Source: Candidatus Altiarchaeota archaeon
GTDB taxonomy: Archaea; Altiarchaeota; Altiarchaeia; IMC4; QMZM01
Direction of reading: 5' to 3'
Assembly: GCA_038891095.1 (NCBI GenBank)
Contig: JAWAEV010000001.1
Coordinates: forward strand, 292,468 to 356,467
Length of the DNA stretch: 64,000 nucleotides
Position numbers and translations under genes: made by a program. The notes beneath the pieces are model-generated. The model saw only the letters and a list, made by a program, of their open reading frames with translations. It was not told the DNA's origin and made no database searches. Below are positions 2 through 25,243 of this stretch, one piece after another. Position 1 is the first letter of the stretch. Every line of letters begins with the position of its first letter.

Positions 2-157
2 ATGATTTCAAAAAAAATTTCAAAGAGGGATAAAGATATAAAGAGAAGACTAATAAAACTTGAAAAAATTGGAAAAGAACTCGCCTGTAGAATAAAAATT
101 TTGGAGAAAAAACTTAACTTTAAGAAGCTAACAAAAAAGAAAAAAGTGGTTAAGTAA
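2..157 (+). CDS. small basic hypothetical protein or 3' end of a gene entering the window
   Basis: Open frame 2-157 (MISKKISKRDKDIKRR...KVVK*), converging on and overlapping the mtnA stop; not in ORF track; may be partial. Confidence 0.35.
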   Translation: MISKKISKRDKDIKRRLIKLEKIGKELACRIKILEKKLNFKKLTKKKKVVK

Positions 158-1211
158 AAACATTAACTAACTTTTTTTTAATTTCACTTGGCTTGAAAAT
201 TCCAACATTAGTTATGAATGCCGTAACAAATCTCTTTGGAGTTATGTCAAATGCAGGATTTCTTGCTTTTGCCCCTTTTGGGGCAATTCTTCTTTTTCCT
301 AAATATAAAACCTCATCATCTGTTCTTTCTTCAATTTTTATTTCCTTGCCTGAATTGCAATTTTTATCAAAAGTTGTTAAAGGTGCAGCAACATAAAAGG
401 GAATGGAATTTTCCTTTGCTAAAACTGCCTTCTCATATGTTCCAATTTTATTTGCAAAATCACCATTTATTGCAATCCTGTCTGCTCCAACAATGCATAG
501 ATCAACTTCACCTTTCTGCATGAAATAACCTGCTGCATTATCAGCAATTATTGCATGTGGAATTCCCTCATTTATTAACTCCCAAGAAGTTAATTTTGCT
601 CCTTGTAATCTTGGCCTTGTTTCATCAACCCAAACAAAAATTTTCTTTTTTGAATAGTGAGCTTCTCTTATCACAGCAAGAGCTGTGCCATGGTCAACAC
701 ATCCTAAAGCACCTGCATTGCAATGAGTTAAAATTTTATCCCCATTCTTTATCAATTTATTTCCAAAAATTCCAATTTTTTTACAAGCAATCTCGATTTT
801 TTTTGCATATTTCTTGCTAGAAATAATTGCAACTTTTTTTGCTTCATTCACAGATTTCGCTTTTTTTATTTTTTCTGTTATCTCATCAACAGCATGAAAA
901 AGATCAAATGCTGTCGGCCTTGTGCTAATGAGAACTTTTTTTGCTTTTTCTAAATGCTCAAAAAATTTCTTCATATTTTCTCCTTGAAATTCTAATGCTG
1001 CCTGTGCCATTGAATAAGCAGATACTGCACCAATTGCTGGTGCCCCCCTTACTATCATATTTTTTATTGCTAATGCGGTCTTCCTGTGATTTTCTGATTT
1101 GTAAATTTCAAATTTTTCAGGCAATTTTCTTTGGTCAATAAGGAAAATAGTCTTGTTGGACATCCAAACTGTTTTATATTCTCTATGGCCTTCGCTAAAT
1201 CTTACTTTCAT
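150..1211 (-). CDS. mtnA: S-methyl-5-thioribose-1-phosphate isomerase (eIF-2B-like family)
   Basis: Motifs IDQRKLP, MIVRGAPAIG, RPTA, THCNAGALG, DETRPRLQGAKLT, GADRI, NKIGTY, NPAFDITP; ATG at 1211 preferred over TTG 1223. Confidence 0.9.
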   Translation of the reverse strand: MKVRFSEGHREYKTVWMSNKTIFLIDQRKLPEKFEIYKSENHRKTALAIKNMIVRGAPAIGAVSAYSMAQAALEFQGENMKKFFEHLEKAKKVLISTRPTAFDLFHAVDEITEKIKKAKSVNEAKKVAIISSKKYAKKIEIACKKIGIFGNKLIKNGDKILTHCNAGALGCVDHGTALAVIREAHYSKKKIFVWVDETRPRLQGAKLTSWELINEGIPHAIIADNAAGYFMQKGEVDLCIVGADRIAINGDFANKIGTYEKAVLAKENSIPFYVAAPLTTFDKNCNSGKEIKIEERTDDEVLYLGKRRIAPKGAKARNPAFDITPKRFVTAFITNVGIFKPSEIKKKLVNVFT

Positions 1212-1315
1212 TTTATAACTCAAATTTTTTTAATTTATATACTAAAATGTAAATTTTAATAATGATGGTTTTTCTAAAAATATGAACTGGGATTATAGAA
1301 TTCTAAACAGGAAAA

Positions 1316-1447
1316 ATGATATGCGACATCTGTGGTAAAACTGTTGATAAGGTATATGTATGCTCTGATTGCGGCTCTTTATTTTGTGTCAAATGTGGTA
1401 ATGTTGAGAAAAAACTCTGCAAAGATTGCGAAAGCTTAGAATTTTAA
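1316..1447 (+). CDS. 43-aa zinc-finger micro-protein with four CxxC motifs
   Basis: Manual translation MICDICGKTVDKVYVCSDCGSLFCVKCGNVEKKLCKDCESLEF*; below ORF-track cutoff. Confidence 0.8.
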   Translation: MICDICGKTVDKVYVCSDCGSLFCVKCGNVEKKLCKDCESLEF

Positions 1448-1490
1448 ATTTTTATTTTATTTTTATCAAATATTTTCTCTTTTATTATTA

Positions 1491-1709
1491 ATGGAAATAA
1501 AAGGTTTTCAAGAGTATAGAAAAAGGGAATTTTGTAATTCTGTTAAATGTCCAGTGCAATTGGAGTTGAATAAAACAAAAGAAAACTCAGAAGAATATGA
1601 AAAAATTAGAGATGAATGCAAAACAAACTGCAGATTTTCAGCAAGAGATTTTCATTATTGGTTGATTAACCATGGATACATTATTATTAAACCAAAAGAG
1701 GTGAAATAA
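1491..1709 (+). CDS. small Cys/His-containing hypothetical protein translationally coupled to lsrF
   Basis: 72 aa, CxxxxC...CxxxC...H; stop overlaps lsrF ATG (TAATG); GAGGTGA SD for lsrF inside its 3' end. Confidence 0.75.
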   Translation: MEIKGFQEYRKREFCNSVKCPVQLELNKTKENSEEYEKIRDECKTNCRFSARDFHYWLINHGYIIIKPKEVK

Positions 1710-2497
1710 TGGACTGGGGGATGAAAAATAGGTTGTCAAGGATAATAAAGCCTAAGGATAAGAGAACAGTTATGCTCGCTGTTGATCATGGATATTTTAT
1801 GGGGCCAACAACTGGTTTAGAAAATTTTGAAATTGTGAAAAAAATTTTACCTTATGCAGATGCCATAATGCTGACAAGAGGTGCTTTAAGGAATTATATT
1901 CAGCCAGAAGAAGATATACCAGTAGTATTGAGAGTTTCTGGCGGAACAAGCATAATAGGTAAGGAACTACTACATGAAGGTATAATAACCTCGATAAAAG
2001 ATGCTTTAAAACTGAATGTTTCTGGCTTAGCATTTTCTATAATGGTTGGTTCAGAATTTGAAAGAGATACCTTGTTAGGATTAGCAAAAATTGTTGATCT
2101 TGGCGAGGAATATGGAATTCCTGTAGTGGCAGTAACAGCAGTAGGGAAAGAATTAGTTAGAGATGCCCGTTACTTAGCATTAGCATCAAGAATTGCTGCT
2201 GAATTTGGTGCACATATTGTTAAGACATATTATTGTGAAAATTTTGAAAAAGTTGTTGATAGTTGCCCTGTGCCAATTGTTATTGCTGGTGGTAAAAAAA
2301 TTTCTGAGGAGGAAGCATTGAAGATGACTTATGATGCTATTCAGAAAGGTGCTTCTGGTGTAGATATGGGGAGAAACATCTTCCAATCAGAAAATCCAAA
2401 AGCGATGATTAAGGCAGTGAAAGCAATTGTTCATGAAAATTTCTCTGCAAAGGAAGCGATTGAAATGTTTAAGAAAGAAAAAGGGGAAACCAGATAA
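1709..2497 (+). CDS. lsrF: LsrF-type 3-hydroxy-5-phosphonooxypentane-2,4-dione thiolase (DhnA/class I aldolase fold)
   Basis: MDWGMKNRLSRI, MLAVDHGYFMGPTTGLE, Schiff-base Lys in HIVKTYY, GVDMGRNIFQS closely match LsrF. Confidence 0.88.
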   Translation: MDWGMKNRLSRIIKPKDKRTVMLAVDHGYFMGPTTGLENFEIVKKILPYADAIMLTRGALRNYIQPEEDIPVVLRVSGGTSIIGKELLHEGIITSIKDALKLNVSGLAFSIMVGSEFERDTLLGLAKIVDLGEEYGIPVVAVTAVGKELVRDARYLALASRIAAEFGAHIVKTYYCENFEKVVDSCPVPIVIAGGKKISEEEALKMTYDAIQKGASGVDMGRNIFQSENPKAMIKAVKAIVHENFSAKEAIEMFKKEKGETR

Positions 2498-2563
2498 CAC
2501 AAGTTCGCTTTTAGCTCCAAAAAGGATTAAGAGAATAAAATGTTCGCTTAATAGTTGTTATGC
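2492..2563 (+). other. degenerate attC-like (or attI-like) recombination site
   Basis: AGATAAC (2492-2498, contains lsrF stop) ... GTTATGC (2557-2563); internal direct repeat GTTCGCTT at 2503 and 2542; weak inner pairing. Confidence 0.4.
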
Positions 2564-2851
2564 TCAATTGCGAGTCGCCCATAAACGAGATCGCCACCGA
2601 AATTCTTCTTTTGTTGCCTCGTTAAAATTCACAAAATGAAAAGGAAAAAACGAAATTGCTTCGCAAATCGTCTAAGAAAATTTTAACGAAATTTTTTCTT
2701 GTTCTTTACGAGAGAGTGCTGCCGTTACGTTTTTGATTCTTTTTTTCTGAAGAAAATAAGGTGGTTAAGAAAGGGGGTGTCGTTTCAAGTCGTTTTCAAC
2801 TTTATTAATACATTTATCAGGATTTTTTAATCTCGTGCTCCCAGAAGACAC

Positions 2852-2879
2852 TTTACTTTTTAAGTCAAAAAAATATAAT
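2852..2879 (+). promoter_or_regulatory. bacterial sigma70-like promoter upstream of the FecR-domain cassette gene
   Basis: TTTACT-16nt-TATAAT followed by GGAGG SD before ATG 2898. Confidence 0.35.
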
Positions 2880-2897
2880 TAAAATGGAGGGATTATT

Positions 2898-4262
2898 ATG
2901 AAAAAATTATCATTTCTTTTATTGGCAACGGGTATGCTTTTAGTTGCTCAAAATTTCTCTGTACTTGCCGAAGAATCTCTATGGCCGCAAGGCGATTTTG
3001 ATTTAGTTTATCCTGTCTATAGAATGTATACTCCCTCAGATCCGGCACCAATAGATAAAGATTACAAAATTCTTTTTGCTTTTTCTCCGCTTTCAGTAAG
3101 GGATGGAAAAGTTTCTACAATTGTCACTCGTCGAACTCCTCTATCATATACTCTTGCCTCTCAACAATTTGATGGCGATGGCATTATCAAAATGGATGGC
3201 GTGTATGATAAAGAAACCGGGAAAATCAGCGGACAATATGAAATTAATTTACAGACTAAAAGTAGAGTAAGCAATTTAAATGCCGGACTACGTTATAGTG
3301 AAGGCTGGGTTGAACGGTCAGAAAGTGGTACTTTTCAAGGACAGGTGATAAAAGACCACGTGGTTTTAAATTTTGCCTGCAAAAAATCAAGTGGACAATA
3401 TTATCGGAAGTACAGAGACAATAAAGAAGAAAGCGGCTCAATAAGCAAGTGTACATATTTTTTCAATAAAGTAGCTTATCAGGTTATACCAATAGTAAAA
3501 TCAGAACCGGCAACTTACAAACAAGAACCCGCAGAAACACCTAAAAAACATGTTGATTCAGGTGTCAGAGTGGCTGGGATGACTGGTCAGTGCGATATTG
3601 AAATCGATGGAGTCAGACGTCCTCTTAAAATGGATGATGTTATTCCTGTTGACGCCCATATTATTACAGAAGAGGACAGCAAAATTATCCTTGCTTTTAC
3701 TGATATGAGCACTTTTGTGGTTGAACCTGAATCTCATATTGTTATAAGCGCTCCAGCTGAAAAAGAAAGCAAACTTAAATTAGTTGCCGGAAACATTTGG
3801 GCCAATATTAAAAAAATGATTAAAGATGGAACAATGGAGGTGGAAATGAATCAGGCGGTGGCAGGAATCAAAGGAACAACTTTTGTCTGCGAGGAAAAAG
3901 ACGGGAAATCAACCCTAAAAGTATTTGAAGGTGTGGTTGATTTTAAATCCAAGGCAAGCAGCGAGACGGTTCAGGTAAAAGGCGGAGAAAAAGTTGTGGC
4001 TGATAATAAAGGACTTTCGCCAGTCGAGAAATTTGATACATTTGAGGAAGTACAATCTTTAATGAAATTAAGAAATGAAGAAGATATTAATTGGGCAGAG
4101 GGCGAAGAAAAAGAAACACAGGATTTATCGGCAACTAAAAAACCAGAAATAACAAAAGAAAAAGCCTCTAATCAATGGCTGTTTATTGGAATAATTCTAA
4201 TTTTGGCACTAATAATAATATTAGTGGGATTAAAGATCGCTAGAAAAGCTAAAAGTAAATAA
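2898..4262 (+). CDS. secreted, C-terminally membrane-anchored FecR-domain protein
   Basis: Signal peptide; FecR-like segment (IITEEDSKIILAFTDMS...LKLVAGNIW...VAGIKGTTF...LKVFEGVV); C-terminal TM helix plus basic tail. Confidence 0.75.
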   Translation: MKKLSFLLLATGMLLVAQNFSVLAEESLWPQGDFDLVYPVYRMYTPSDPAPIDKDYKILFAFSPLSVRDGKVSTIVTRRTPLSYTLASQQFDGDGIIKMDGVYDKETGKISGQYEINLQTKSRVSNLNAGLRYSEGWVERSESGTFQGQVIKDHVVLNFACKKSSGQYYRKYRDNKEESGSISKCTYFFNKVAYQVIPIVKSEPATYKQEPAETPKKHVDSGVRVAGMTGQCDIEIDGVRRPLKMDDVIPVDAHIITEEDSKIILAFTDMSTFVVEPESHIVISAPAEKESKLKLVAGNIWANIKKMIKDGTMEVEMNQAVAGIKGTTFVCEEKDGKSTLKVFEGVVDFKSKASSETVQVKGGEKVVADNKGLSPVEKFDTFEEVQSLMKLRNEEDINWAEGEEKETQDLSATKKPEITKEKASNQWLFIGIILILALIIILVGLKIARKAKSK

Positions 4263-4530
4263 AGAATTTATCGCCATAATGATATGACTAAAATCGAAGA
4301 AATTTTAAAATTTAAAATCAAGCCGAAAGAAAAGGATATAGAATTTAAGCCGCGAGAACTCTATAAACCTCAACGCTTTGTCTCCTAAATGACTAATCGC
4401 AAAATCAATATAAAGTTCGACAAATTCGGGGTTTTCCTGTGAGGCGTATTCCAGAGACTCTATCAGATGTCCCTTGGTCACTAGCAGATGCTAATTATTC
4501 AAAACCCAACGATTCCCTCAACAAACCTGT

Positions 4531-4619
4531 ACATAACAGTGGATAAACGGTCGACTCTCGCATAGTCTCACCCAAATGCTCGCTGACATTCGCACTTCTT
4601 ATGTCCGCAGCTGTTAGGC
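4531..4619 (+). other. attC site
   Basis: R'' ACATAAC (4531-4537) and R' GTTAGGC (4613-4619); TAACAG/CTGTTA pairing; partial inner arms GGATAA/TTATGTCC; 89 bp. Confidence 0.65.
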
Positions 4620-4662
4620 GAAATGCCCAAACCCGACTTTGAAAATCGGAGGTAATAGAACT

Positions 4663-5274
4663 ATGGAAACAAAATTAGACCTGACAAAGGAATACAAAAC
4701 CTATTATACAGCAAGAACAAACCCTAATGTAGTTGAATTTGGTGAAATTCCATTTTTGACTATTGAGGGCAAAGGTGAACCCGCTGGAGAAGTTTTTACA
4801 AAAGCAGTTGAAGCTTTGTATCCTCTTGCCTATAGTGTCAAAAATATCTCTAAAAAGCAGGGTAAAGATTTTAGTGTCCCAAAATTAGAGGGATTATGGT
4901 GGGTAGAGCCTGATAGACCTGCTTTGGAGGTGCCTCGCGAAGAATGGCGCTGGAAACTTCTTATTCGTATGCCTGATTTTGTTACTTCAGATATGGTAGA
5001 GAAGGCAAAAGAAGAGGTTTTCAAAAAGAAAGGAATAACTCTGGTTAAGGAAATCAAGTTCGAAAAGATTAAGGAAGGTAAATGCATTCAGATATTGCAC
5101 ATAGGGCCATATTCAACAGAGCCAGAGTCGTTATCAAAAATGCGAAAATTGATGGAACAGAAAAATCTTGTTGAAAATGGTCTTCACCATGAAATCTATC
5201 TTTCTGACCCACGAAAGGTTGCTCCAGAAAAGATGAAAACTATTTTAAGGCAACCAGTGAAAGAAAGAGGTTAG
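4663..5274 (+). CDS. GyrI-like small-molecule binding domain protein
   Basis: KLDLTKEYK.YY, IEGKGEP, PKLEGLWW, WRWKLLIRMPDFV, HIGPYSTE, HHEIYLSDPRK, TILRQPV; GGAGGT SD before ATG 4663. Confidence 0.88.
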   Translation: METKLDLTKEYKTYYTARTNPNVVEFGEIPFLTIEGKGEPAGEVFTKAVEALYPLAYSVKNISKKQGKDFSVPKLEGLWWVEPDRPALEVPREEWRWKLLIRMPDFVTSDMVEKAKEEVFKKKGITLVKEIKFEKIKEGKCIQILHIGPYSTEPESLSKMRKLMEQKNLVENGLHHEIYLSDPRKVAPEKMKTILRQPVKERG

Positions 5275-5279
5275 AAAAA

Positions 5280-5966
5280 ATGCAATTTAACAACATCTTA
5301 AAAAAACTAAAATCCCTATCTAATCCCAGAGCCGTTGAAGGCATGGTTAAATACGGGATTACCGCTGAGAGAGCTTATGGCGTGTCAATTCCGAATTTAA
5401 GAAAGATTGCCAAAGAAATAGGAAAAGACCATAAACTTGCTCAACAACTTTGGAAATTAAATATTCGAGAAACTCGAATACTTGCAAGTATGATTGATGA
5501 CCCTGTATTAGTGACCGAGAAGCAAATGGAAAAATGGGTAAAGGAGTTTGATTACTGGGAAATCTGTGACCAGATCTGTCAAAATCTTTTTACTTACTCT
5601 AAATTTGCTTATCAAAAAGCCATAGAATGGAGCGAAAGAGACGAAGAATTCGTAAAAAGGGCAGGGTTTGCTTTAATGGCTTGGTTAGCTTTTAAAGATA
5701 AGAAAGCAAAAGATGAGCAATTTGAAGTATTCTTTCCAATCATAAAAAGAGAATCTACTGATGATAGAATCCTTGTTAAGAAAGCTGTGAATTGGGCATT
5801 AAGACAGATTGGGAAACGAAATATTGCCTTGAATACAAAGGCAATTGAAACTGCGAAAGAGATTCAAAAGATAGAATCTAAAAGTGCTAAATGGATTGCT
5901 CAAGATGCAGTCAAGGAATTAACGAGCAATGCAATCCAAGAAAGATTGAAAGAAAGAGGTAAATAA
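5280..5966 (+). CDS. DNA alkylation repair protein (AlkD-like HEAT-repeat glycosylase family)
   Basis: YGVSIPNLRKIAK, RETRILA, FDYWEICD, EEFVKRAGF, VKKAVNWALRQIGKRN. Confidence 0.88.
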   Translation: MQFNNILKKLKSLSNPRAVEGMVKYGITAERAYGVSIPNLRKIAKEIGKDHKLAQQLWKLNIRETRILASMIDDPVLVTEKQMEKWVKEFDYWEICDQICQNLFTYSKFAYQKAIEWSERDEEFVKRAGFALMAWLAFKDKKAKDEQFEVFFPIIKRESTDDRILVKKAVNWALRQIGKRNIALNTKAIETAKEIQKIESKSAKWIAQDAVKELTSNAIQERLKERGK

Positions 5967-6020
5967 TATGGATGGACTTGGGCACTCTGCAGTGCTTCGA
6001 ACCTTGCCCCTATCGGGGTC

Positions 6021-6102
6021 GCTTAACACAGCATATACGACTCACTTCGTTCGCCCAAATTTCGGCTACGCCGAAACTTCGTATATGACGGAGCCGTTAT
6101 GT
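6021..6102 (+). other. attC site
   Basis: R'' GCTTAAC (6021-6027), R' GTTATGT (6096-6102), perfect inner arms CATATACGA/TCGTATATG, central hairpin TTTCGGC-TAC-GCCGAAA; 82 bp. Confidence 0.82.
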
Positions 6103-6245
6103 GAAATTCGAAAACCTGCCTCTCACAAAAAGAGATCGTAAATTATGACTATTTTGTTGCATTCGTAAGTTTATATAAGGAAGAGGGCACTAGATTTAAT
6201 ATTAAAAGTTCTAATAAATTTATAAGAGCTGATTTTACTTTTCTC

Positions 6246-6584
6246 ATGAAAACTTGGATTAAATGCGGTATGATGGGATTAACAATTTGGGTTTTACTCT
6301 TTTTAGCATTTTATATTAGTGATTATCTAGTAAAATGTTCATTACCAACAAATGACTCTGGGTCTCCATTAGTAGGTAGTAGCTGTTGGAATTCTATTCA
6401 GGAGTTAATATTAATGATTTTTGCAGTTTTAAGTTTTCCTTTTCTTTTAGTTGGGGCAAATCCGAATATGACTACTGTTGGTCCTTTTCGTGTTATGCTT
6501 TTTTGGATTGGTAGCATGATATCTTTTGTTTTGTGGGGAATGTTAACTGGATGGATAATTGAAAAAATACTTGAGGCAAAGTAA
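6246..6584 (+). CDS. hypothetical membrane protein (3 TM), last cassette ORF
   Basis: 112 aa, three hydrophobic segments; follows attC. Confidence 0.7.
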   Translation: MKTWIKCGMMGLTIWVLLFLAFYISDYLVKCSLPTNDSGSPLVGSSCWNSIQELILMIFAVLSFPFLLVGANPNMTTVGPFRVMLFWIGSMISFVLWGMLTGWIIEKILEAK

Positions 6585-6656
6585 CAGTAGGTTTAAATGT
6601 AGTCGTTTATCTTTACATTAGCATTTTAATTTCAATTTTCATATAATTTTCTTGCT

Positions 6657-7655
6657 ATGAAAGTTGCAGTTTACTATAGCAACAATGATATTCGCATAGA
6701 AGAAAGACCAATTCCAAAAATTAGCAAAGGTGAAATTTTACTTAAAGTTATTTCTTCAGGAATTTGTGGTAGTGATGTAATGGAATGGTACCGCATTAAG
6801 GAAGCTCCGAAAGTTTTAGGACATGAAGTTACTGGCATAGTTGAAAAAGTTGCTAAGGATGTGAAAAAATTTAAAGTTGGTGATAGAATTTTTGTGACGC
6901 ATCATGTTCCTTGTAATAAATGCAAATATTGTCTTCAAGGAGAAGAGACTGTTTGCAAAACTCTAAGAAGAACAAATTTTTATCCTGGTGGCTTTTCTCA
7001 ATACATAAGAATTCCAAAAATAAATGTAGAAAAAGGCACTTTTTTATTGCCAAGAGAAATTTCATTTGACGAAGGAACTTTTATTGAGCCATTAGCTTGT
7101 GTTATTCGCAGCCAAAGAAAAGCAGGTATAGAAAAAGGTCATAATGTGCTTATAATTGGCTCAGGAGTTTCAGGTTTATTACATATACAGTTAGCTAAAT
7201 TGAAGAAAGCAAAGAAAATTGCTGTTATTGACATTAATCCTTACCGCCTTAAAATTGCAAAAAAATTCGGAGCAAATTTTACAGCAAACGCAAATGAGAA
7301 TTTAGATGAGAAATTTGATAGAGTTATTGTTTGCACTTCTGCAAAGGAAGCAATAGAGAAATCATTTAAATTTGTTGATAATGCTGGAACAATTTTATTT
7401 TTTGCTCCAACAAGTCCAGAGAGCAAGATAGAAATGCCATTTAATGAGCTATGGTTTAAATGTGTTAAAATTATAAGTTCATATGCTGCTGCAGAAAAAG
7501 ACATTAAAGAGGCGATAAAAATTTTGAAGGAAAAGAAGATGAATTTAAAAGGAATGATTACGCATAAACTACCATTACAAGAAACATTAGAAGGCTTTAA
7601 AATTGTTTCTAAAGCTGATAGATCCATGAAAGTTATTATAAAACCACAAGAGTAA
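6657..7655 (+). CDS. zinc-dependent (MDR) sugar/polyol dehydrogenase, NAD-type
   Basis: GICGSD, GHE, structural Zn CNKCKYC...C, GSGVSG Rossmann motif, acidic residue in DINPYR. Confidence 0.92.
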   Translation: MKVAVYYSNNDIRIEERPIPKISKGEILLKVISSGICGSDVMEWYRIKEAPKVLGHEVTGIVEKVAKDVKKFKVGDRIFVTHHVPCNKCKYCLQGEETVCKTLRRTNFYPGGFSQYIRIPKINVEKGTFLLPREISFDEGTFIEPLACVIRSQRKAGIEKGHNVLIIGSGVSGLLHIQLAKLKKAKKIAVIDINPYRLKIAKKFGANFTANANENLDEKFDRVIVCTSAKEAIEKSFKFVDNAGTILFFAPTSPESKIEMPFNELWFKCVKIISSYAAAEKDIKEAIKILKEKKMNLKGMITHKLPLQETLEGFKIVSKADRSMKVIIKPQE

Positions 7656-7688: not shown

Positions 7689-8279
7689 ATGGATAGCAAA
7701 ACTCAAAGCAACAAAGTTATGATAGGAGATTATCTTGGCACAATAGAAGAGTTCCTATTAGGTGAAGGTACTTATGCTGAAAATGGAGAAATTTTTGCTG
7801 CAAGAATTGGAGAGAAAGTTGTTGATAAAGAAAGACATATTGTTAAAGTTATCGGTAAAAAACCTGTTGAATTACAAGTAGGACAAATTGTTTTTGGAAA
7901 AATAATTGATGTGAAAAAAAATTTCATAACTGTGACAATAAAAAAAATTCAAGGTTTTAATGAGGAGTTAGATATAAATGCAAATTTATATGTTGCAAAT
8001 ATTTCAGATAGCTATGTTAACAAACCAGAGGATATGTTTGGGATTGGTGATATAATAAAGGCAAGAGTTATAAAAATTGATATTGATCTTGTAGATATTT
8101 CAACAAAAGGCGATTTTGGAGTTGTAAAAGCATTCTGTAAGAAATGTAGATCTCAATTGGTGAAATCTGAAAAATTCAAAGAACGATTAGTTTGCGAAAG
8201 CTGCGGCAGTAAAGAAGTGAGAAAAATTGCTAGTGATTATGGAAATGTAGTAGAAACGACAACTATGATACATGTCTAA
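7689..8279 (+). CDS. csl4: exosome complex RNA-binding protein Csl4
   Basis: GDYLGTIEEFLLGEGTY, S1 domain, C-terminal CKKC...CESC Zn ribbon, RKIASDYG. Confidence 0.93.
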   Translation: MDSKTQSNKVMIGDYLGTIEEFLLGEGTYAENGEIFAARIGEKVVDKERHIVKVIGKKPVELQVGQIVFGKIIDVKKNFITVTIKKIQGFNEELDINANLYVANISDSYVNKPEDMFGIGDIIKARVIKIDIDLVDISTKGDFGVVKAFCKKCRSQLVKSEKFKERLVCESCGSKEVRKIASDYGNVVETTTMIHV

Positions 8280-8383
8280 TTCTCGAGTTTATCACATCTT
8301 CAGTTTTGTTTAAGATATACCTTGCAATGTTTTTCCTTGATCAACCAAGATTTTGATATAATAAAAAATTTATTTAAAAAAAT

Positions 8384-9079
8384 TTAAGGTGTAGGTACAA
8401 CGATATCTCCTTCCATAAACCAGCTATTAACTTTCCTTGTTGATATAAAAGGGTCAACAGATTTCACTACCGTAGTAGGTGTTTTAACAATCAGTTTTTT
8501 AGACAATGACGACCATCCAGCATTTTTTAAGTGTTCAGCATTTCTGGTTATGAGAAGTTCTTCTGCAGCTTCTCTAGAGGTTAAATCCCTTGAAAAACTA
8601 AAACTAAATCTATGACTAGTTGATTTAAAACTGTTTGAGAATAATTTGTTTGCAGCTTTAGGTACTGTTACTTTTGTAAACTTGATACCGCCTACCATCA
8701 TAGTGACGCTATCTAATGCATACTCCGCTGCACTATTAAACTTTTGCCTATATCTTTTGTATTTATCTTCTTTAGTTTCCCATGTAGCTCCAGCACCACC
8801 AATTCTCACAGGATTGTTACTTTTAAGGGTTGCGCTTTCGATCTTCCGTGACAACTCCTCGTTTAAGTCAATAGTTTTCTTAATACCAAGAGAACTAATA
8901 GTAAGTCCATCATCTTTTTTTGATAGCATAGAGCTTACGGTCAGTTTAGAAAGTATTAGAGAGCTATCAGAAGAACCTGCAGAAACGAGCAGAGAAAAAA
9001 CAGATAACACCAAAATCAAAAAAACAGATCCAAGAAATAATCGTATAATTTCCATATTCTCAATGCTTTTTATTTTCAT
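8384..9079 (-). CDS. secreted hypothetical protein
   Basis: Signal peptide, Ser/Lys-rich N-region, no recognisable domain. Confidence 0.65.
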   Translation of the reverse strand: MKIKSIENMEIIRLFLGSVFLILVLSVFSLLVSAGSSDSSLILSKLTVSSMLSKKDDGLTISSLGIKKTIDLNEELSRKIESATLKSNNPVRIGGAGATWETKEDKYKRYRQKFNSAAEYALDSVTMMVGGIKFTKVTVPKAANKLFSNSFKSTSHRFSFSFSRDLTSREAAEELLITRNAEHLKNAGWSSLSKKLIVKTPTTVVKSVDPFISTRKVNSWFMEGDIVVPTP

Positions 9080-12013: not shown

Positions 12014-12050
12014 TTTTGTTTTGAAATATATTATTAATAGTTTTAATTTT

Positions 12051-12124
12051 GGGATCGTGGGGTAGTTTGGTTATCCTTCGAGCTTTGGGAGCTCGCGACC
12101 GGAGTTCAAATCTCCGCGATCCCA
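12051..12124 (+). tRNA. tRNA-Pro(TGG)
   Basis: GGGATCG/CGATCCC acceptor stem, anticodon arm CGAGC-TTTGGGA-GCTCG, TTCAAAT T-loop; no encoded CCA. Confidence 0.95.
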
Positions 12125-12141
12125 CTATGCTCATTTTTAAA

Positions 12142-13686
12142 ATGGAAGTTAAAGTCAGAACTATTGATCTAGACGCTGGTGGAAAAAATATCGTAATTCT
12201 TAATAAGAATGATGCTGAAGAGCTTGGTGTTTATCCCCTCGATAGAGTTATGTTAGAATATAAAGGAAAGGCTACGACTGCTATTGTGAATACAAGTGAA
12301 AAATTTGTAAAAAAAGGGGAGATTCTTGTTTATAATGAAGTAAAACAAGAGTTGAACTTGCGAGGATATGCTAAGGTTAATGTAAAAAGAAGGGAAAAAC
12401 TTAGCTCGAAGGAGTTTATAAGACAAAAAATAGAGGGTTTACAACTTCGTAAGAATGAATTAGAAAGTATTGTTAACGATGTTGTAGAGAAAAAACTAAA
12501 TGATCTGGAACTTGCGGCGTTTATCACAAGTTTGTATATTCATGGGATTTCAATTGAGGAGGCAGCGTATCTAAGCGAGGTAATAGCTAATGGCGGAGAA
12601 CAATTAAGATGGGATAAGGAGTATGTCATGGATAAACACAGTTTAGGTGGTGTTCCAGGAGATAAAACAACTCTTTTAGTTGTGCCAATAGTTGCTTCTG
12701 CTAATCTAACTATTCCAAAAACTTCTTCAAGAGCAATAACTTCCCCAGCTGGCACAGCAGATAGAGCAGAATGTATAATGCCTGTTAACTTATCAGTCAA
12801 AGAAATAAAAAAAGTTGTTGAAAAAACAAATGCATGTATTGCATGGGGAGGGGCATTAAACATGGCTCCTGCAGATGATCTTTTTATAAGAATAGAATAT
12901 CCATTAGATTTAGATCCACTATTTATGCCATCAATAATGGCAAAGAAAAAAGCTGCTGGCTCAACACATTTAGTTTTAGATTTGCCCACAGGTTCTGGAA
13001 CAAAAATTGAAAATCTTGAAAATGCTAAAAAAATTGCTGAAAATTTTCTTGATTTAGGACAAAAGTTAGGAATTAAAGTGCAATGTGCAATAACTTTTGG
13101 TGAGGAACCAATTGGAAATTGTATTGGTCCAGCTTTAGAAGCAAGAGAAGCTCTGATGGCATTAAAAACAGGCAAGCCAAAAGACTTAGTTGAGAAAGCA
13201 TGCTCTTTAGCAGGAATTTTATTTAGCATGGTTGGAAAAGGTGATAAAAAAACAGCTTATAAAATACTGCACTCTGGAAAAGCAGAGAAAAAATTTAGAG
13301 AGATTATAGCAGAGCAAGGAGGAGATGAAAAAATTCATTTTGAGGATATAAAAGTTGGTGAAAAAACTAAAGACTTCTGTGCTGAATGCTCAGGAGTGAT
13401 TCTCAGCATAAAGAATCATGAAATTGCAAAAACTGCAAAAATTGCTGGAGCACCAAAAGATAAAGAAGCAGGAATTTTGCTGTATAAAAAAATTGGAGAA
13501 TTTGTTGAAAAAGGTGAACCATTGTTTAGAATATATGCAAAGAAAGATGAAAAACTAAGAGAAGCTGCTGAATTTGCAACTAAAACAAATCCTTTTGTTA
13601 TTGTGAGTAAGAACAAAAATATGGTTATGGAAATTTTGAGTAAAAGAGAAAATAGCTATAGAAAAGTTTTCACAATTGAAAGGTAA
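12142..13686 (+). CDS. AMP phosphorylase (thymidine phosphorylase family, NMP degradation)
   Basis: N-terminal extension, DKHSLGGVPGDKT, KTSSRAITSPAGTAD, GIGPALEA-like motif, AGAPKDKEAG; real start ATG 12142 after the tRNA. Confidence 0.93.
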   Translation: MEVKVRTIDLDAGGKNIVILNKNDAEELGVYPLDRVMLEYKGKATTAIVNTSEKFVKKGEILVYNEVKQELNLRGYAKVNVKRREKLSSKEFIRQKIEGLQLRKNELESIVNDVVEKKLNDLELAAFITSLYIHGISIEEAAYLSEVIANGGEQLRWDKEYVMDKHSLGGVPGDKTTLLVVPIVASANLTIPKTSSRAITSPAGTADRAECIMPVNLSVKEIKKVVEKTNACIAWGGALNMAPADDLFIRIEYPLDLDPLFMPSIMAKKKAAGSTHLVLDLPTGSGTKIENLENAKKIAENFLDLGQKLGIKVQCAITFGEEPIGNCIGPALEAREALMALKTGKPKDLVEKACSLAGILFSMVGKGDKKTAYKILHSGKAEKKFREIIAEQGGDEKIHFEDIKVGEKTKDFCAECSGVILSIKNHEIAKTAKIAGAPKDKEAGILLYKKIGEFVEKGEPLFRIYAKKDEKLREAAEFATKTNPFVIVSKNKNMVMEILSKRENSYRKVFTIER

Positions 13687-24073: not shown

Positions 24074-25243
24074 TTAGAATATCCACTCTTGCTTTTTTAC
24101 TTTTCCTTCCTTTACTAATTTATAAATTTTTTCTATATTCCCAAAGGTTATATCTCTACCACCTAAGCCAACTATAAAACTGCTTATTTCTGGTTTTTTT
24201 TCATTATAAAAAGCAGACCTTATTTCATCAAATACCGGAGAATTTGCACCTAAGGAAATTGCTCTTTCAATTACAGCAATTTTTTCCATATCTTTTAAAT
24301 TTTTAACTATTTCTTCCTTTGGAAATGGTCTATAGCATAATATCTTCAAAAGCCCTACTTTCTCACCCTTCTCGCGAAATTTATCTATCATGAATTTTAA
24401 AGTTCCGCATAAAGAGCCAAGAGCAACAAATGCAACTTTAGAATCTTCAAGTTTATATGCTTCAACAACATCATAATTTTTTGGCCTTGAATTTTCTATC
24501 TTAACTGGAAATTTTTCTGAAAATTCTTTAAAGACTTCTTTTATTTTTGTTATAGAATTTTCAATAGCCTTTTGTTGAGAATATTTTATCTCCATAAAAT
24601 GTGAAGGAAAAGCTATTGGTCCAAAAGTCATTGGTTTATCAGGATCAAGATATATTTCTGCTTTATATTCTGGTAGAAATTCATCTATTTCCTCTTGTGC
24701 AGGGATAAACACTGGCTCATAAACATGCGAAAGTGTAAATCCATCTATACAAACCATTGAAGGTAGCAAAATATCTTTGCTCTCAGAAATTTTATATTGC
24801 ATTATTGTAAGGTCAAAAGCCTCTTGTGAAGTTTCAGCATAAAATTGTAACCAGCCAGAATCTCTTACAGAAATAGAATCCTGGTGGTCACCCCAAATAT
24901 TTATCGGTGCTGATAAAGCTCTATTTGCAACTGTCATTCCAATTGGTAAACGCAATCCTGAAACAACAAAAAGAACCTCAAACATTAATGCCAATCCTTG
25001 TGAAGATGTAGAAGTGTAAGTTCTTACTCCTGTAGCTTCTGCACCTAAACAAGCAGATAATGCCGAGAATTCTGACTCAACATTTATATATTTTGCATTA
25101 ATTTCATGATTTGCAACCATCTCTGAAAGTCTTTCAACGATATGAGTCTGCGGTGTTATAGGATAAGCTGCAATAACCCCTGGTTTTATCATCTTAACTG
25201 CTTCTGCTATAGCATGTGAAGTTTCCAAAATTTTTTTAGTCAT
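24074..25243 (-). CDS. porA: pyruvate/2-oxoacid:ferredoxin oxidoreductase alpha subunit
   Basis: YPITPQT, ESEFSA, TSSQGL, GLGGRDI; ATG 25243 overlaps porD stop. Confidence 0.93.
   Translation of the reverse strand: MTKKILETSHAIAEAVKMIKPGVIAAYPITPQTHIVERLSEMVANHEINAKYINVESEFSALSACLGAEATGVRTYTSTSSQGLALMFEVLFVVSGLRLPIGMTVANRALSAPINIWGDHQDSISVRDSGWLQFYAETSQEAFDLTIMQYKISESKDILLPSMVCIDGFTLSHVYEPVFIPAQEEIDEFLPEYKAEIYLDPDKPMTFGPIAFPSHFMEIKYSQQKAIENSITKIKEVFKEFSEKFPVKIENSRPKNYDVVEAYKLEDSKVAFVALGSLCGTLKFMIDKFREKGEKVGLLKILCYRPFPKEEIVKNLKDMEKIAVIERAISLGANSPVFDEIRSAFYNEKKPEISSFIVGLGGRDITFGNIEKIYKLVKEGKVKKQEWIF

Follow-up and report, generated by a model that had tools for sequence, protein, structure and literature searches.

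Conserved pairing of LsrF with a zinc-dependent dehydrogenase beside mtnA in Altiarchaeota: a predicted route from 5-deoxyribulose-1-phosphate to dihydroxyacetone phosphate and acetyl-CoA

A stretch of 64,000 nucleotides from a Candidatus Altiarchaeota archaeon (assembly GCA_038891095.1, contig JAWAEV010000001.1, positions 292,468 to 356,467), referred to here as the window, includes near its start a gene for an MtnA-type isomerase and, divergent from it, genes for a small cysteine-rich protein (orf72), an ortholog of LsrF, and a zinc-dependent medium-chain dehydrogenase/reductase (MDR) (Table 1). LsrF and the MDR constitute a tightly conserved gene pair across archaeal and bacterial phyla, a conclusion that is strongly supported by the loci described below. 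It is also strongly supported, with positional data as the strongest evidence, that orf72-LsrF-MDR occupies the syntenic slot that is held in sister genomes, between ahcY and mtnA, by the class II aldolase (AldII) of the dihydroxyacetone phosphate (DHAP) shunt. On balance we favor a route in which the MDR oxidizes C4 of 5-deoxyribulose-1-phosphate and LsrF, using CoA, cleaves the product to DHAP and acetyl-CoA; the substrate and both catalytic steps of this route are predictions.

Conservation and genomic context of the LsrF-MDR pair

The source genome (G000) has 958,546 bp in 15 contigs, is 93.65% complete and has a G+C content of about 31%. It was compared with a set of 61 related genomes, in which MDR orthologs were called at an identity of at least 50%, and with 13 LsrF loci of relatives, in which LsrF is 59-82% identical to that of the window. 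Searching species-representative genomes with a profile built from 13 MDR orthologs gave at least 598 matching stretches, of which the best 80, 54 archaeal and 26 bacterial, were examined as MDR-seeded loci. The archaeal hosts of these 80 belong to Hadarchaeota, Bathyarchaeia, Thermoplasmatota, Methanosarcinales, Aenigmatarchaeota and Altiarchaeota, and the bacterial hosts to WOR-3, Zixibacteria, Omnitrophota, Planctomycetota, Chloroflexota, Desulfobacterota, Nitrospirota and others.

In 65 of the best 80 loci (43 of the 54 archaeal and 22 of the 26 bacterial), LsrF and the MDR share a strand, with LsrF upstream, and the gap between the two genes is 400 nt or less in 48 of the 80. Three of the 15 exceptions have less than 450 nt of upstream sequence, and 12 of the 15 exception genomes encode an LsrF above the cut-off elsewhere, so that both genes are present in 77 of 80. 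Among the 61 related genomes, all 14 that are LsrF-positive carry the MDR ortholog. It is found without LsrF only in G009 and G060, in both cases at contig breaks (in G009 the MDR abuts mtnA and the contig ends there), and it is absent from all 45 other related genomes without LsrF. Thirty-six of these 45 have AldII, a distribution that argues against the MDR being a mere aldehyde reductase. The initial annotation had proposed that the dehydrogenase would follow lsrF once an inserted cassette was removed from the window. This is the arrangement found on the same contig in 12 of the 13 relatives' loci, with gaps of 4-310 nt in ten of them and of about 1.3 and 1.7 kb in two, and it is also supported by a co-occurring strain that appears to be free of the insert. 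In the thirteenth locus the contig stops after LsrF, and the MDR of that genome starts another contig, where it adjoins ahcY.

The gene mtnA adjoins the module divergently in G000, G014, G015, G018 and G009, and lies 2.4-6 kb from it in G039 and G050. Eight of the 54 archaeal MDR-seeded loci, spread over several phyla, include an MtnA gene. A cut-off search that covered 50 MDR-bearing genomes and left 28 of the 80 aside found MtnA above the cut-off in 44 of the 50. The linkage of lsrF, this dehydrogenase and mtnA, on which the initial annotation was built, thus extends well beyond the window.

No class II aldolase (PF00596) was found in the whole G000 assembly, while the family is present in 44 of the 61 related genomes. 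Within the family to which the source archaeon itself belongs (f1), AldII is located directly beside mtnA in ten members (G001, G002, G003, G004, G006, G008, G013, G017, G020 and G021), and LsrF and/or the MDR is located beside mtnA, with no AldII match genome-wide, in G000, G009, G014, G015 and G018. In four of eight sampled relatives with AldII next to mtnA, ahcY is divergent on the far side of the aldolase, giving the order ahcY, AldII-mtnA; in G014 and G018 the order is ahcY-MDR-LsrF-orf72 followed by mtnA. Of the 36 genomes with an aldolase match but neither LsrF nor the MDR, 22 have AldII within 2.5 kb of mtnA.

The initial annotation had noted that the window has no lsrK, lsrG or class II aldolase. 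As is the case for the aldolase, the two lsr genes are missing genome-wide: no FGGY kinase (FGGY_N) and no ABM-domain protein was found in the whole G000 assembly, these being the families to which we take LsrK and LsrG to belong, and neither family is among the annotated neighbor clusters of the MDR loci. In this 93.65%-complete assembly, no companion of the LsrK or LsrG type was thus found for LsrF; the autoinducer-2 (AI-2) ABC transporter was not specifically searched for. Absences from profile searches of this kind need careful reading, since a control E. coli genome gave no match to NF006081 (LsrF), although E. coli K-12 carries lsrF; the first-look filter or the choice of control strain may explain the result. 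Public annotation labels these LsrF-like proteins AI-2 aldolase or thiolase, which would fit genuine degradation of AI-2 (phospho-DPD), that is, quorum quenching as in E. coli. We regard this reading as hardly credible here, given the missing kinase and ABM protein and a conserved partner that is a dehydrogenase, a gene that does not belong to the lsr operon as outlined in passages of PMC2728841.

Table 1. Features at the start of the window
Feature	Coordinates	Strand	Remarks
MtnA-type 5-methylthioribose-1-phosphate/5-deoxyribose-1-phosphate isomerase (IF-2B family)	150-1223	-	PF01008 299.8 bits
43-aa ORF, four CxxC pairs (zinc-ribbon-like)	1316-1447	+	specific to this genome
orf72, four-cysteine protein of about 70 aa (72 aa here)	1491-1709	+	neighbor of LsrF
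LsrF ortholog, DhnA-type class I aldolase fold	1709-2497	+	3-hydroxy-5-phosphonooxypentane-2,4-dione thiolase family
Strain-variable insert of unrelated genes separating LsrF from the MDR	2557-6095		
FecR-like gene	2898-4262		Pfam match
GyrI-like gene	4639-5274		Pfam match
DNA-alkylation-repair-like gene	5280-5966		Pfam match
orf112	6246-6584	+	no family match; kept in the insert-free strain form
NAD-type zinc MDR dehydrogenase, polyol/secondary-alcohol branch	6657-7655	+	ADH_N 88.2, ADH_zinc_N 60.3 bits

Gene products and the predicted route

The LsrF ortholog scores 403.7 bits with NF006081, above the curated equivalog cut-off of 297, and 299 bits (E 2e-88) against the E. coli LsrF structures 3gkf, 3glc and 4p2v; no other DhnA-family gene was found in G000. 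Two other identities were tried and rejected, DhnA-type class I fructose-bisphosphate aldolase (TIGR01949, 201.5 bits versus a cut-off of 299.45) and ADH synthase (NF040816, 143.1 versus 430). Passages of the structural work on E. coli LsrF (Diaz 2009, PMC2728841) single out the Schiff-base lysine Lys203, Asp57/His58, a phosphate site formed by Gly226, Gly227, Gly253 and Arg254, and Asp251. The equivalents in the window protein are D26, H27, K172, G194, G195, G221 and R222, none of which varies among the 75 LsrF-like sequences. D219 takes the position of Asp251, an LsrF-specific residue beside the lysine; 14 DhnA paralogs of the relatives have Ser or Ala there. The LsrF-like clade splits at residues 219-220 into a 'DM' form (43 sequences; the form seen in E. 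coli and in the window) and an 'NL' form (32 sequences), both of which are linked to the MDR. For the E. coli enzyme, a CoA-dependent thiolysis that yields DHAP and acetyl-CoA is described in a passage of PMC7828210, and a passage of Diaz et al. (PMC2728841) reports that the reaction products were undetectable in vitro.

The MDR has catalytic zinc ligands C37, H56, E57 and E144, structural-zinc cysteines C86, C89, C92 and C100, a Rossmann motif GSGxSG (G168-G173) and D192, an acidic residue after beta-2 that we take to indicate a preference for NAD. The zinc ligands, the GSGxSG motif and D192 are invariant in 13 of 13 sequences. The protein remains below every NCBIfam equivalog cut-off, the best being threonine dehydrogenase (TDH), with 165 versus 380; another L-threonine 3-dehydrogenase equivalog gave 163 versus 458.35 and galactitol-1-phosphate 5-dehydrogenase 145.2 versus 550. 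Threonine dehydrogenase was rejected as the identity of the MDR, as it fails these cut-offs and the partner LsrF has a phosphate-binding site. The closest relatives in the PDB are ketose reductase and sorbitol, xylitol, L-arabinitol, threonine, butanediol and galactitol-1-phosphate dehydrogenases, enzymes that oxidize a secondary alcohol at or beside the end of the chain; the best polyol dehydrogenase scored 198.3 bits and the bacterial alcohol dehydrogenase 1rjw 169.6.

MtnA scores 389.1 bits with TIGR00512 (cut-off 279) and 413.2 with NF004326 (cut-off 271). The ribose-1,5-bisphosphate (R15P) isomerase model TIGR00511 gives 237 versus a cut-off of 314, so that an MtnA-type enzyme is favored, and the window protein is 57-64% identical to the MtnA of relatives in which the gene adjoins AldII or LsrF. 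The divergent arrangement of mtnA and a unit of zinc-finger ORF, 72-aa ORF and lsrF, as originally read from the window, was confirmed at the ORF level.

The substrate of the proposed route would come from 5'-deoxyadenosine, which is a by-product of every radical-SAM enzyme and inhibits those enzymes; G000 has 16 radical-SAM genes. Deamination and phosphorolysis of 5'-deoxyadenosine, and perhaps of methylthioadenosine, would give 5-deoxyribose-1-phosphate, by genes that are seen in relatives and that in G000 coincide with a contig break. MtnA would convert this compound to 5-deoxyribulose-1-phosphate, the NAD-dependent MDR would oxidize the penultimate hydroxyl, at C4, to render 3-hydroxy-5-phosphonooxypentane-2,4-dione, and LsrF would form a Schiff base through the conserved lysine, followed by cleavage with CoA to DHAP and acetyl-CoA. 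On paper, as the initial annotation had stated, oxidation of CH2OP-CO-CHOH-CHOH-CH3 at C4 gives CH2OP-CO-CHOH-CO-CH3, the substrate named in NF006081. The module orf72-LsrF-MDR could then be considered a functional alternative to the AldII of the DHAP shunt that would yield NADH and acetyl-CoA instead of acetaldehyde, and a salvage module acting on the product of MtnA that would be unconnected to AI-2 signaling. Triose-phosphate isomerase (TPI) and a PFOR alpha subunit are present in G000; the window includes an alpha-subunit domain of a 2-oxoacid:ferredoxin oxidoreductase (POR_N, 237 bits, about 24530-25201, minus strand), which indicates that acetyl-CoA metabolism exists in this small genome.

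Genes for the upstream steps were located in the relatives. The PNP/MtnP family (PF01048) is present in 53 of the 61. In G014 (L137, 5240-9320) and G015 (L138, 4603-7241) a cluster includes genes for a purine phosphoribosyltransferase, for an MTAP-like phosphorylase that scores 205 bits and so falls short of its cut-off, and for a hydrolase of the 5'-deoxyadenosine/methylthioadenosine deaminase family; in G014 it also holds a 483-aa ORF of no assigned family. In G050 mtnP (TIGR01694, 289.3 versus 274.85) overlaps mtnA, 5-6 kb from the module. The counterpart in G000 consists only of a shortened phosphoribosyltransferase homolog at bases 7-366 of contig C4. As this homolog of the gene that flanks the phosphorylase in G014 and G015 is cut off at the first bases of the contig, and its neighbors are also missing, an assembly gap probably accounts for the lack of the phosphorylase.

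The same enzymes could instead constitute a DHAP shunt with a non-orthologous aldolase, LsrF cleaving (deoxy/methylthio)ribulose-1-phosphate to DHAP and (methylthio)acetaldehyde and the MDR reducing the aldehyde. Reduction of the aldehyde to the alcohol is the final step of the known anaerobic DHAP shunt, LsrF sits in the slot of AldII, and its DhnA class I aldolase fold retains the Schiff-base lysine and the general base; zinc MDRs also include aldehyde reductases, among them the relative 1rjw mentioned above. However, an aldolase alone would suffice for such a shunt, yet LsrF and the MDR occur together in 77 of 80 genomes and 14 of 14 relatives, and the 36 AldII-bearing, LsrF-negative genomes produce the same aldehydes without this MDR. 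In addition, the closest solved relatives of the MDR are secondary-alcohol and polyol dehydrogenases, the partner protein scores as LsrF and not as an aldolase or ADH synthase, and the products of E. coli LsrF went undetected in vitro in the passage of Diaz et al. cited above. We consider this alternative rather unlikely. A dehydrogenase followed by a thiolase is favored over an aldolase followed by a reductase because the two genes are almost never apart, the MDR is absent from 45 relatives that have no LsrF, and it belongs to the polyol branch.

Downstream of the MDR, at a distance of about 4.4 kb, the window encodes an AMP phosphorylase (12049-13686, plus strand; TIGR03327 608.6 versus 535). 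A second, divergent IF-2B paralog is located at 232557-233402 of contig C1 of G000, with a PfkB-type kinase beside it (7957-8886, minus strand, of L122). No RuBisCO was found in G000, while RuBisCO is present in 52 of the 61 relatives, all 13 LsrF-positive ones included; either an assembly gap hides the G000 gene, or ribulose bisphosphate is disposed of in some other way in this organism. Together these genes raise the idea that the same chemistry is fed by a pentulose phosphate that does not come from MtnA, such as ribulose-1-phosphate or ribulose-1,5-bisphosphate formed via AMP phosphorylase, which would give DHAP and glycolyl- or phosphoglycolyl-CoA; 1-deoxyxylulose-5-phosphate is another candidate, as its oxidation at C4 would likewise yield the LsrF substrate. 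On the other hand, AMP phosphorylase is found in none of the 93 other module loci (the 13 of relatives and the 80 seeded with the MDR), the adjacent isomerase is of the MtnA type and not of the R15P isomerase type, and we know of no sink for glycolyl- or phosphoglycolyl-CoA, all of which makes such a feed improbable. A role of LsrF-MDR as a substitute for RuBisCO in the AMP pathway was rejected, since RuBisCO and the module coexist in 13 of 13 LsrF-positive relatives.

Another destination for the pair would be the synthesis of aromatic amino acids, with the MDR and the LsrF-like enzyme leading to 6-deoxy-5-ketofructose-1-phosphate. A proposal of this kind for Methanocaldococcus jannaschii, in a passage of PMC6079011, ties the salvage of 5'-deoxyadenosine to a DhnA-family step, and LsrF is related to ADH synthase. 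This destination is nevertheless very improbable for the module: LsrF falls below the ADH-synthase cut-off, G000 has no second DhnA-family gene that could serve as ADH synthase, and the pair is equally linked in bacteria (22 of 26 loci), which, as far as we know, generally do not use the route of M. jannaschii.

Several observations count against the route via C4 oxidation and CoA cleavage. In G000 itself about 4.2 kb separates the MDR from LsrF. With regard to the source of the substrate, no PNP/MtnP-family gene (PF01048) was matched in G000 and no convincing MtnK-type kinase was found there (best 17.9 bits); with regard to a sink, no ADP-forming acetyl-CoA synthetase domain (PF13607) was found in this genome. 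MtnA above the cut-off is nearly universal in the clade (51 of the 61 related genomes), so that its co-occurrence with the module at the genome level is by itself weak evidence. LsrF retains the aldolase general base D57, which is compatible with aldol cleavage, and at the position of D251 the 75 LsrF-like sequences have either Asp (43) or Asn (32), given which catalysis may differ within the clade. AldII shares a contig with the module in eight of the 16 relatives that are positive for LsrF and/or the MDR, and is also co-located in 18 of 80 metagenome loci seeded with orf72; the module therefore cannot be seen simply as a stand-in for the aldolase. Finally, the chemistry is predicted from gene content, and the data are equally compatible with 5-deoxy and 5-methylthio substrates.

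Of the eight relatives with both, seven have AldII within about 0.6 kb of orf72-LsrF, and in the remaining one the distance is 4.7 kb. Seven relatives carry it immediately upstream of orf72, and in G044 it occurs on both sides. These aldolases are orthologs of the one next to mtnA, with an identity of 44-56% to those found beside mtnA in five LsrF-negative relatives. The simultaneous presence of AldII and the module could reflect parallel handling of methylthio and deoxy substrates, or a carrier cycle. In such a cycle, AldII would condense acetaldehyde (or methylthioacetaldehyde) with DHAP, the MDR would oxidize the adduct, and LsrF would free the acyl-CoA and regenerate DHAP, for a CoA-acylating oxidation of aldehydes without an aldehyde dehydrogenase. 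We consider a DHAP-carrier cycle unlikely even where the operon is shared; if true, it would imply that the LsrF of enterobacterial AI-2 systems was recruited from an older and far more widespread salvage module.

As a side observation, in three MDR-seeded loci, two of Omnitrophota and one of Planctomycetia (L069, L073 and L114), the LsrF-MDR pair ends a longer conserved operon that encodes a B12-binding radical SAM protein, an Amidohydro_2 protein, a class IV aminotransferase, an isomerase of the IF-2B family with 29-35% identity to MtnA, a fusion of class II aldolase and SCP2, and an aldehyde dehydrogenase. This operon may represent a larger anaerobic salvage or methionine-related pathway.

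The interpretation given in the initial annotation is thus partly supported. It is well supported for the linkage of the genes and their placement in the pathway, as the linkage is conserved and no lsrK- or lsrG-type gene was found elsewhere in the genome, and its chemistry is a prediction. Its picture of a route that dispenses with a class II aldolase fits G000 and seven relatives, but not the eight relatives that have AldII in or near the cluster.

The small open reading frames and the insert

The stop codon of orf72 overlaps the ATG of LsrF (TAATG), and orf72 precedes LsrF in 12 of the 13 relatives' loci, the thirteenth contig ending 56 nt past the start of LsrF. The family has invariant cysteines at C15, C20, C43 and C47 and an FH.WL motif, and no Pfam or NCBIfam match was found for it. 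An AlphaFold2 model shows four helices (pLDDT 82), and a fold search of this model against the PDB returned nothing at E <= 0.001. Metagenome loci seeded with orf72 have LsrF immediately downstream in 53 of 66 testable cases and include the MDR in 44 of 52. The family was found in 36 of the 93 other module loci and in 560 metagenome stretches; in the Atlas, which shows unnamed clusters only, it falls in a cluster of 1,908 members to which no Pfam family is assigned. Prediction of a complex between orf72 and LsrF gave a score of 0.00, which is no verdict for or against binding. The protein may have a role in the module.

In contrast to orf72, the 43-aa ORF is specific to this genome, as judged from spacer length: the spacer between mtnA and orf72 is 32-100 nt in relatives L002, L033 and L034, which leaves no room there for it. 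Contigs from the only RNA-library run (X5, a sediment metatranscriptome of a different study from that of the hot-spring DNA runs) are 100% identical to the window at 1287-1528, 3315-3526 and 3896-4046. Their coverage is limited to the zinc-ribbon ORF and to portions of the FecR-like gene, with none over LsrF or the MDR, so that they permit no statement on the expression of the module.

The G+C content of the insert between LsrF and the MDR reaches 0.41, compared to about 0.30. The insert is not present in 10 of the 12 LsrF-MDR spacers of the relatives. In G014, which has one of the two long spacers, an alkylation-repair gene 65% identical to that of the window is located between LsrF and the MDR, and the congener G018 is without it; the spacer thus looks like a recurrent insertion site. 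In two other sequencing runs (X3 and X4) of the study from which the genome probably stems, the contigs that match the window at 97-99% identity break off at 2561 and resume at 6096, and the depth, about 15, drops to 0-5 across the insert. One contig joins 2556 directly to 6096, its shorter side having only 25 nt, below the caution limit of 30 nt. A co-occurring strain without nucleotides 2557-6095 appears to be present, an interpretation for which these data are supportive and not proof. A search for repeats around the insert revealed no flanking direct or inverted repeats of note, and as a consequence no mobile-element boundary can be named. The gene orf112 is located on the contig that restarts at 6096, and no homolog of it was found in the relatives' loci.

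Relation to known pathways

The DHAP shunt consists of MtnP or DrdK, MtnA/DrdI and the class II aldolase Ald2/DrdA, as summarized in a passage of Beaudoin et al. 2018 (PMC6079011). The module resembles it in the upstream steps, the MtnA-type isomerase, the mtnA/ahcY slot and DHAP as a product. It differs in that a dehydrogenase and a CoA-dependent LsrF-type enzyme replace or supplement the aldol cleavage, and in that the predicted second product is acetyl-CoA, with NADH, instead of acetaldehyde. The same source mentions 'at least four' other possibilities of disposal, and the first three that its passage gives, namely the M. jannaschii route, excretion and moonlighting, do not match the module. 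The M. jannaschii route via 6-deoxy-5-ketofructose-1-phosphate, as presented there, is likewise an archaeal fate of 5-deoxyribulose-1-phosphate that involves DhnA-family enzymes, but it is biosynthetic and specific to archaea, whereas the LsrF-MDR pair is equally conserved in bacteria and the window protein falls in the LsrF clade and not in the ADH-synthase/aldolase clade.

With the Lsr system of E. coli and Salmonella (LsrK, LsrG and LsrF) the module shares the LsrF ortholog, its active-site residues and, for the last step, what substrate and products are predicted. Unlike that system, it has no LsrK- or LsrG-type gene in G000, its proposed substrate would arise from the oxidation of a 5-deoxypentulose phosphate and not from the action of a kinase and an isomerase on a signal molecule, and its hosts are uncultured anaerobic archaea and bacteria. 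The logic of oxidation followed by CoA cleavage is that of threonine degradation, in which threonine 3-dehydrogenase, an MDR, oxidizes a CH3-CHOH end to a methyl ketone and 2-amino-3-ketobutyrate CoA ligase frees acetyl-CoA by cleavage with CoA; TDH is among the best family matches of the MDR. The module, on the other hand, would act on a sugar phosphate and cleave it with a TIM-barrel protein that forms a Schiff base, not with a pyridoxal phosphate (PLP) enzyme, and the MDR is below the TDH cut-offs.

A full-text literature search, with most subscription papers and supplements outside its reach, found nothing that joins the LsrF reaction to the salvage of 5-deoxy- or methylthio-pentoses, in agreement with the impression recorded in the initial annotation. 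This points to the LsrF-MDR route to DHAP and acetyl-CoA as one that is undescribed so far and can be considered a variant of a known salvage pathway. If true, strict anaerobes would gain NADH and acetyl-CoA in place of a toxic aldehyde, and the route would account for the 'AI-2 thiolase/aldolase' annotations in many uncultured archaea and bacteria. It would also give a function to an unnamed MDR subfamily with at least 598 matching stretches in species-representative genomes, while the module points, in addition, to orf72 as a new family of small cysteine-rich proteins.

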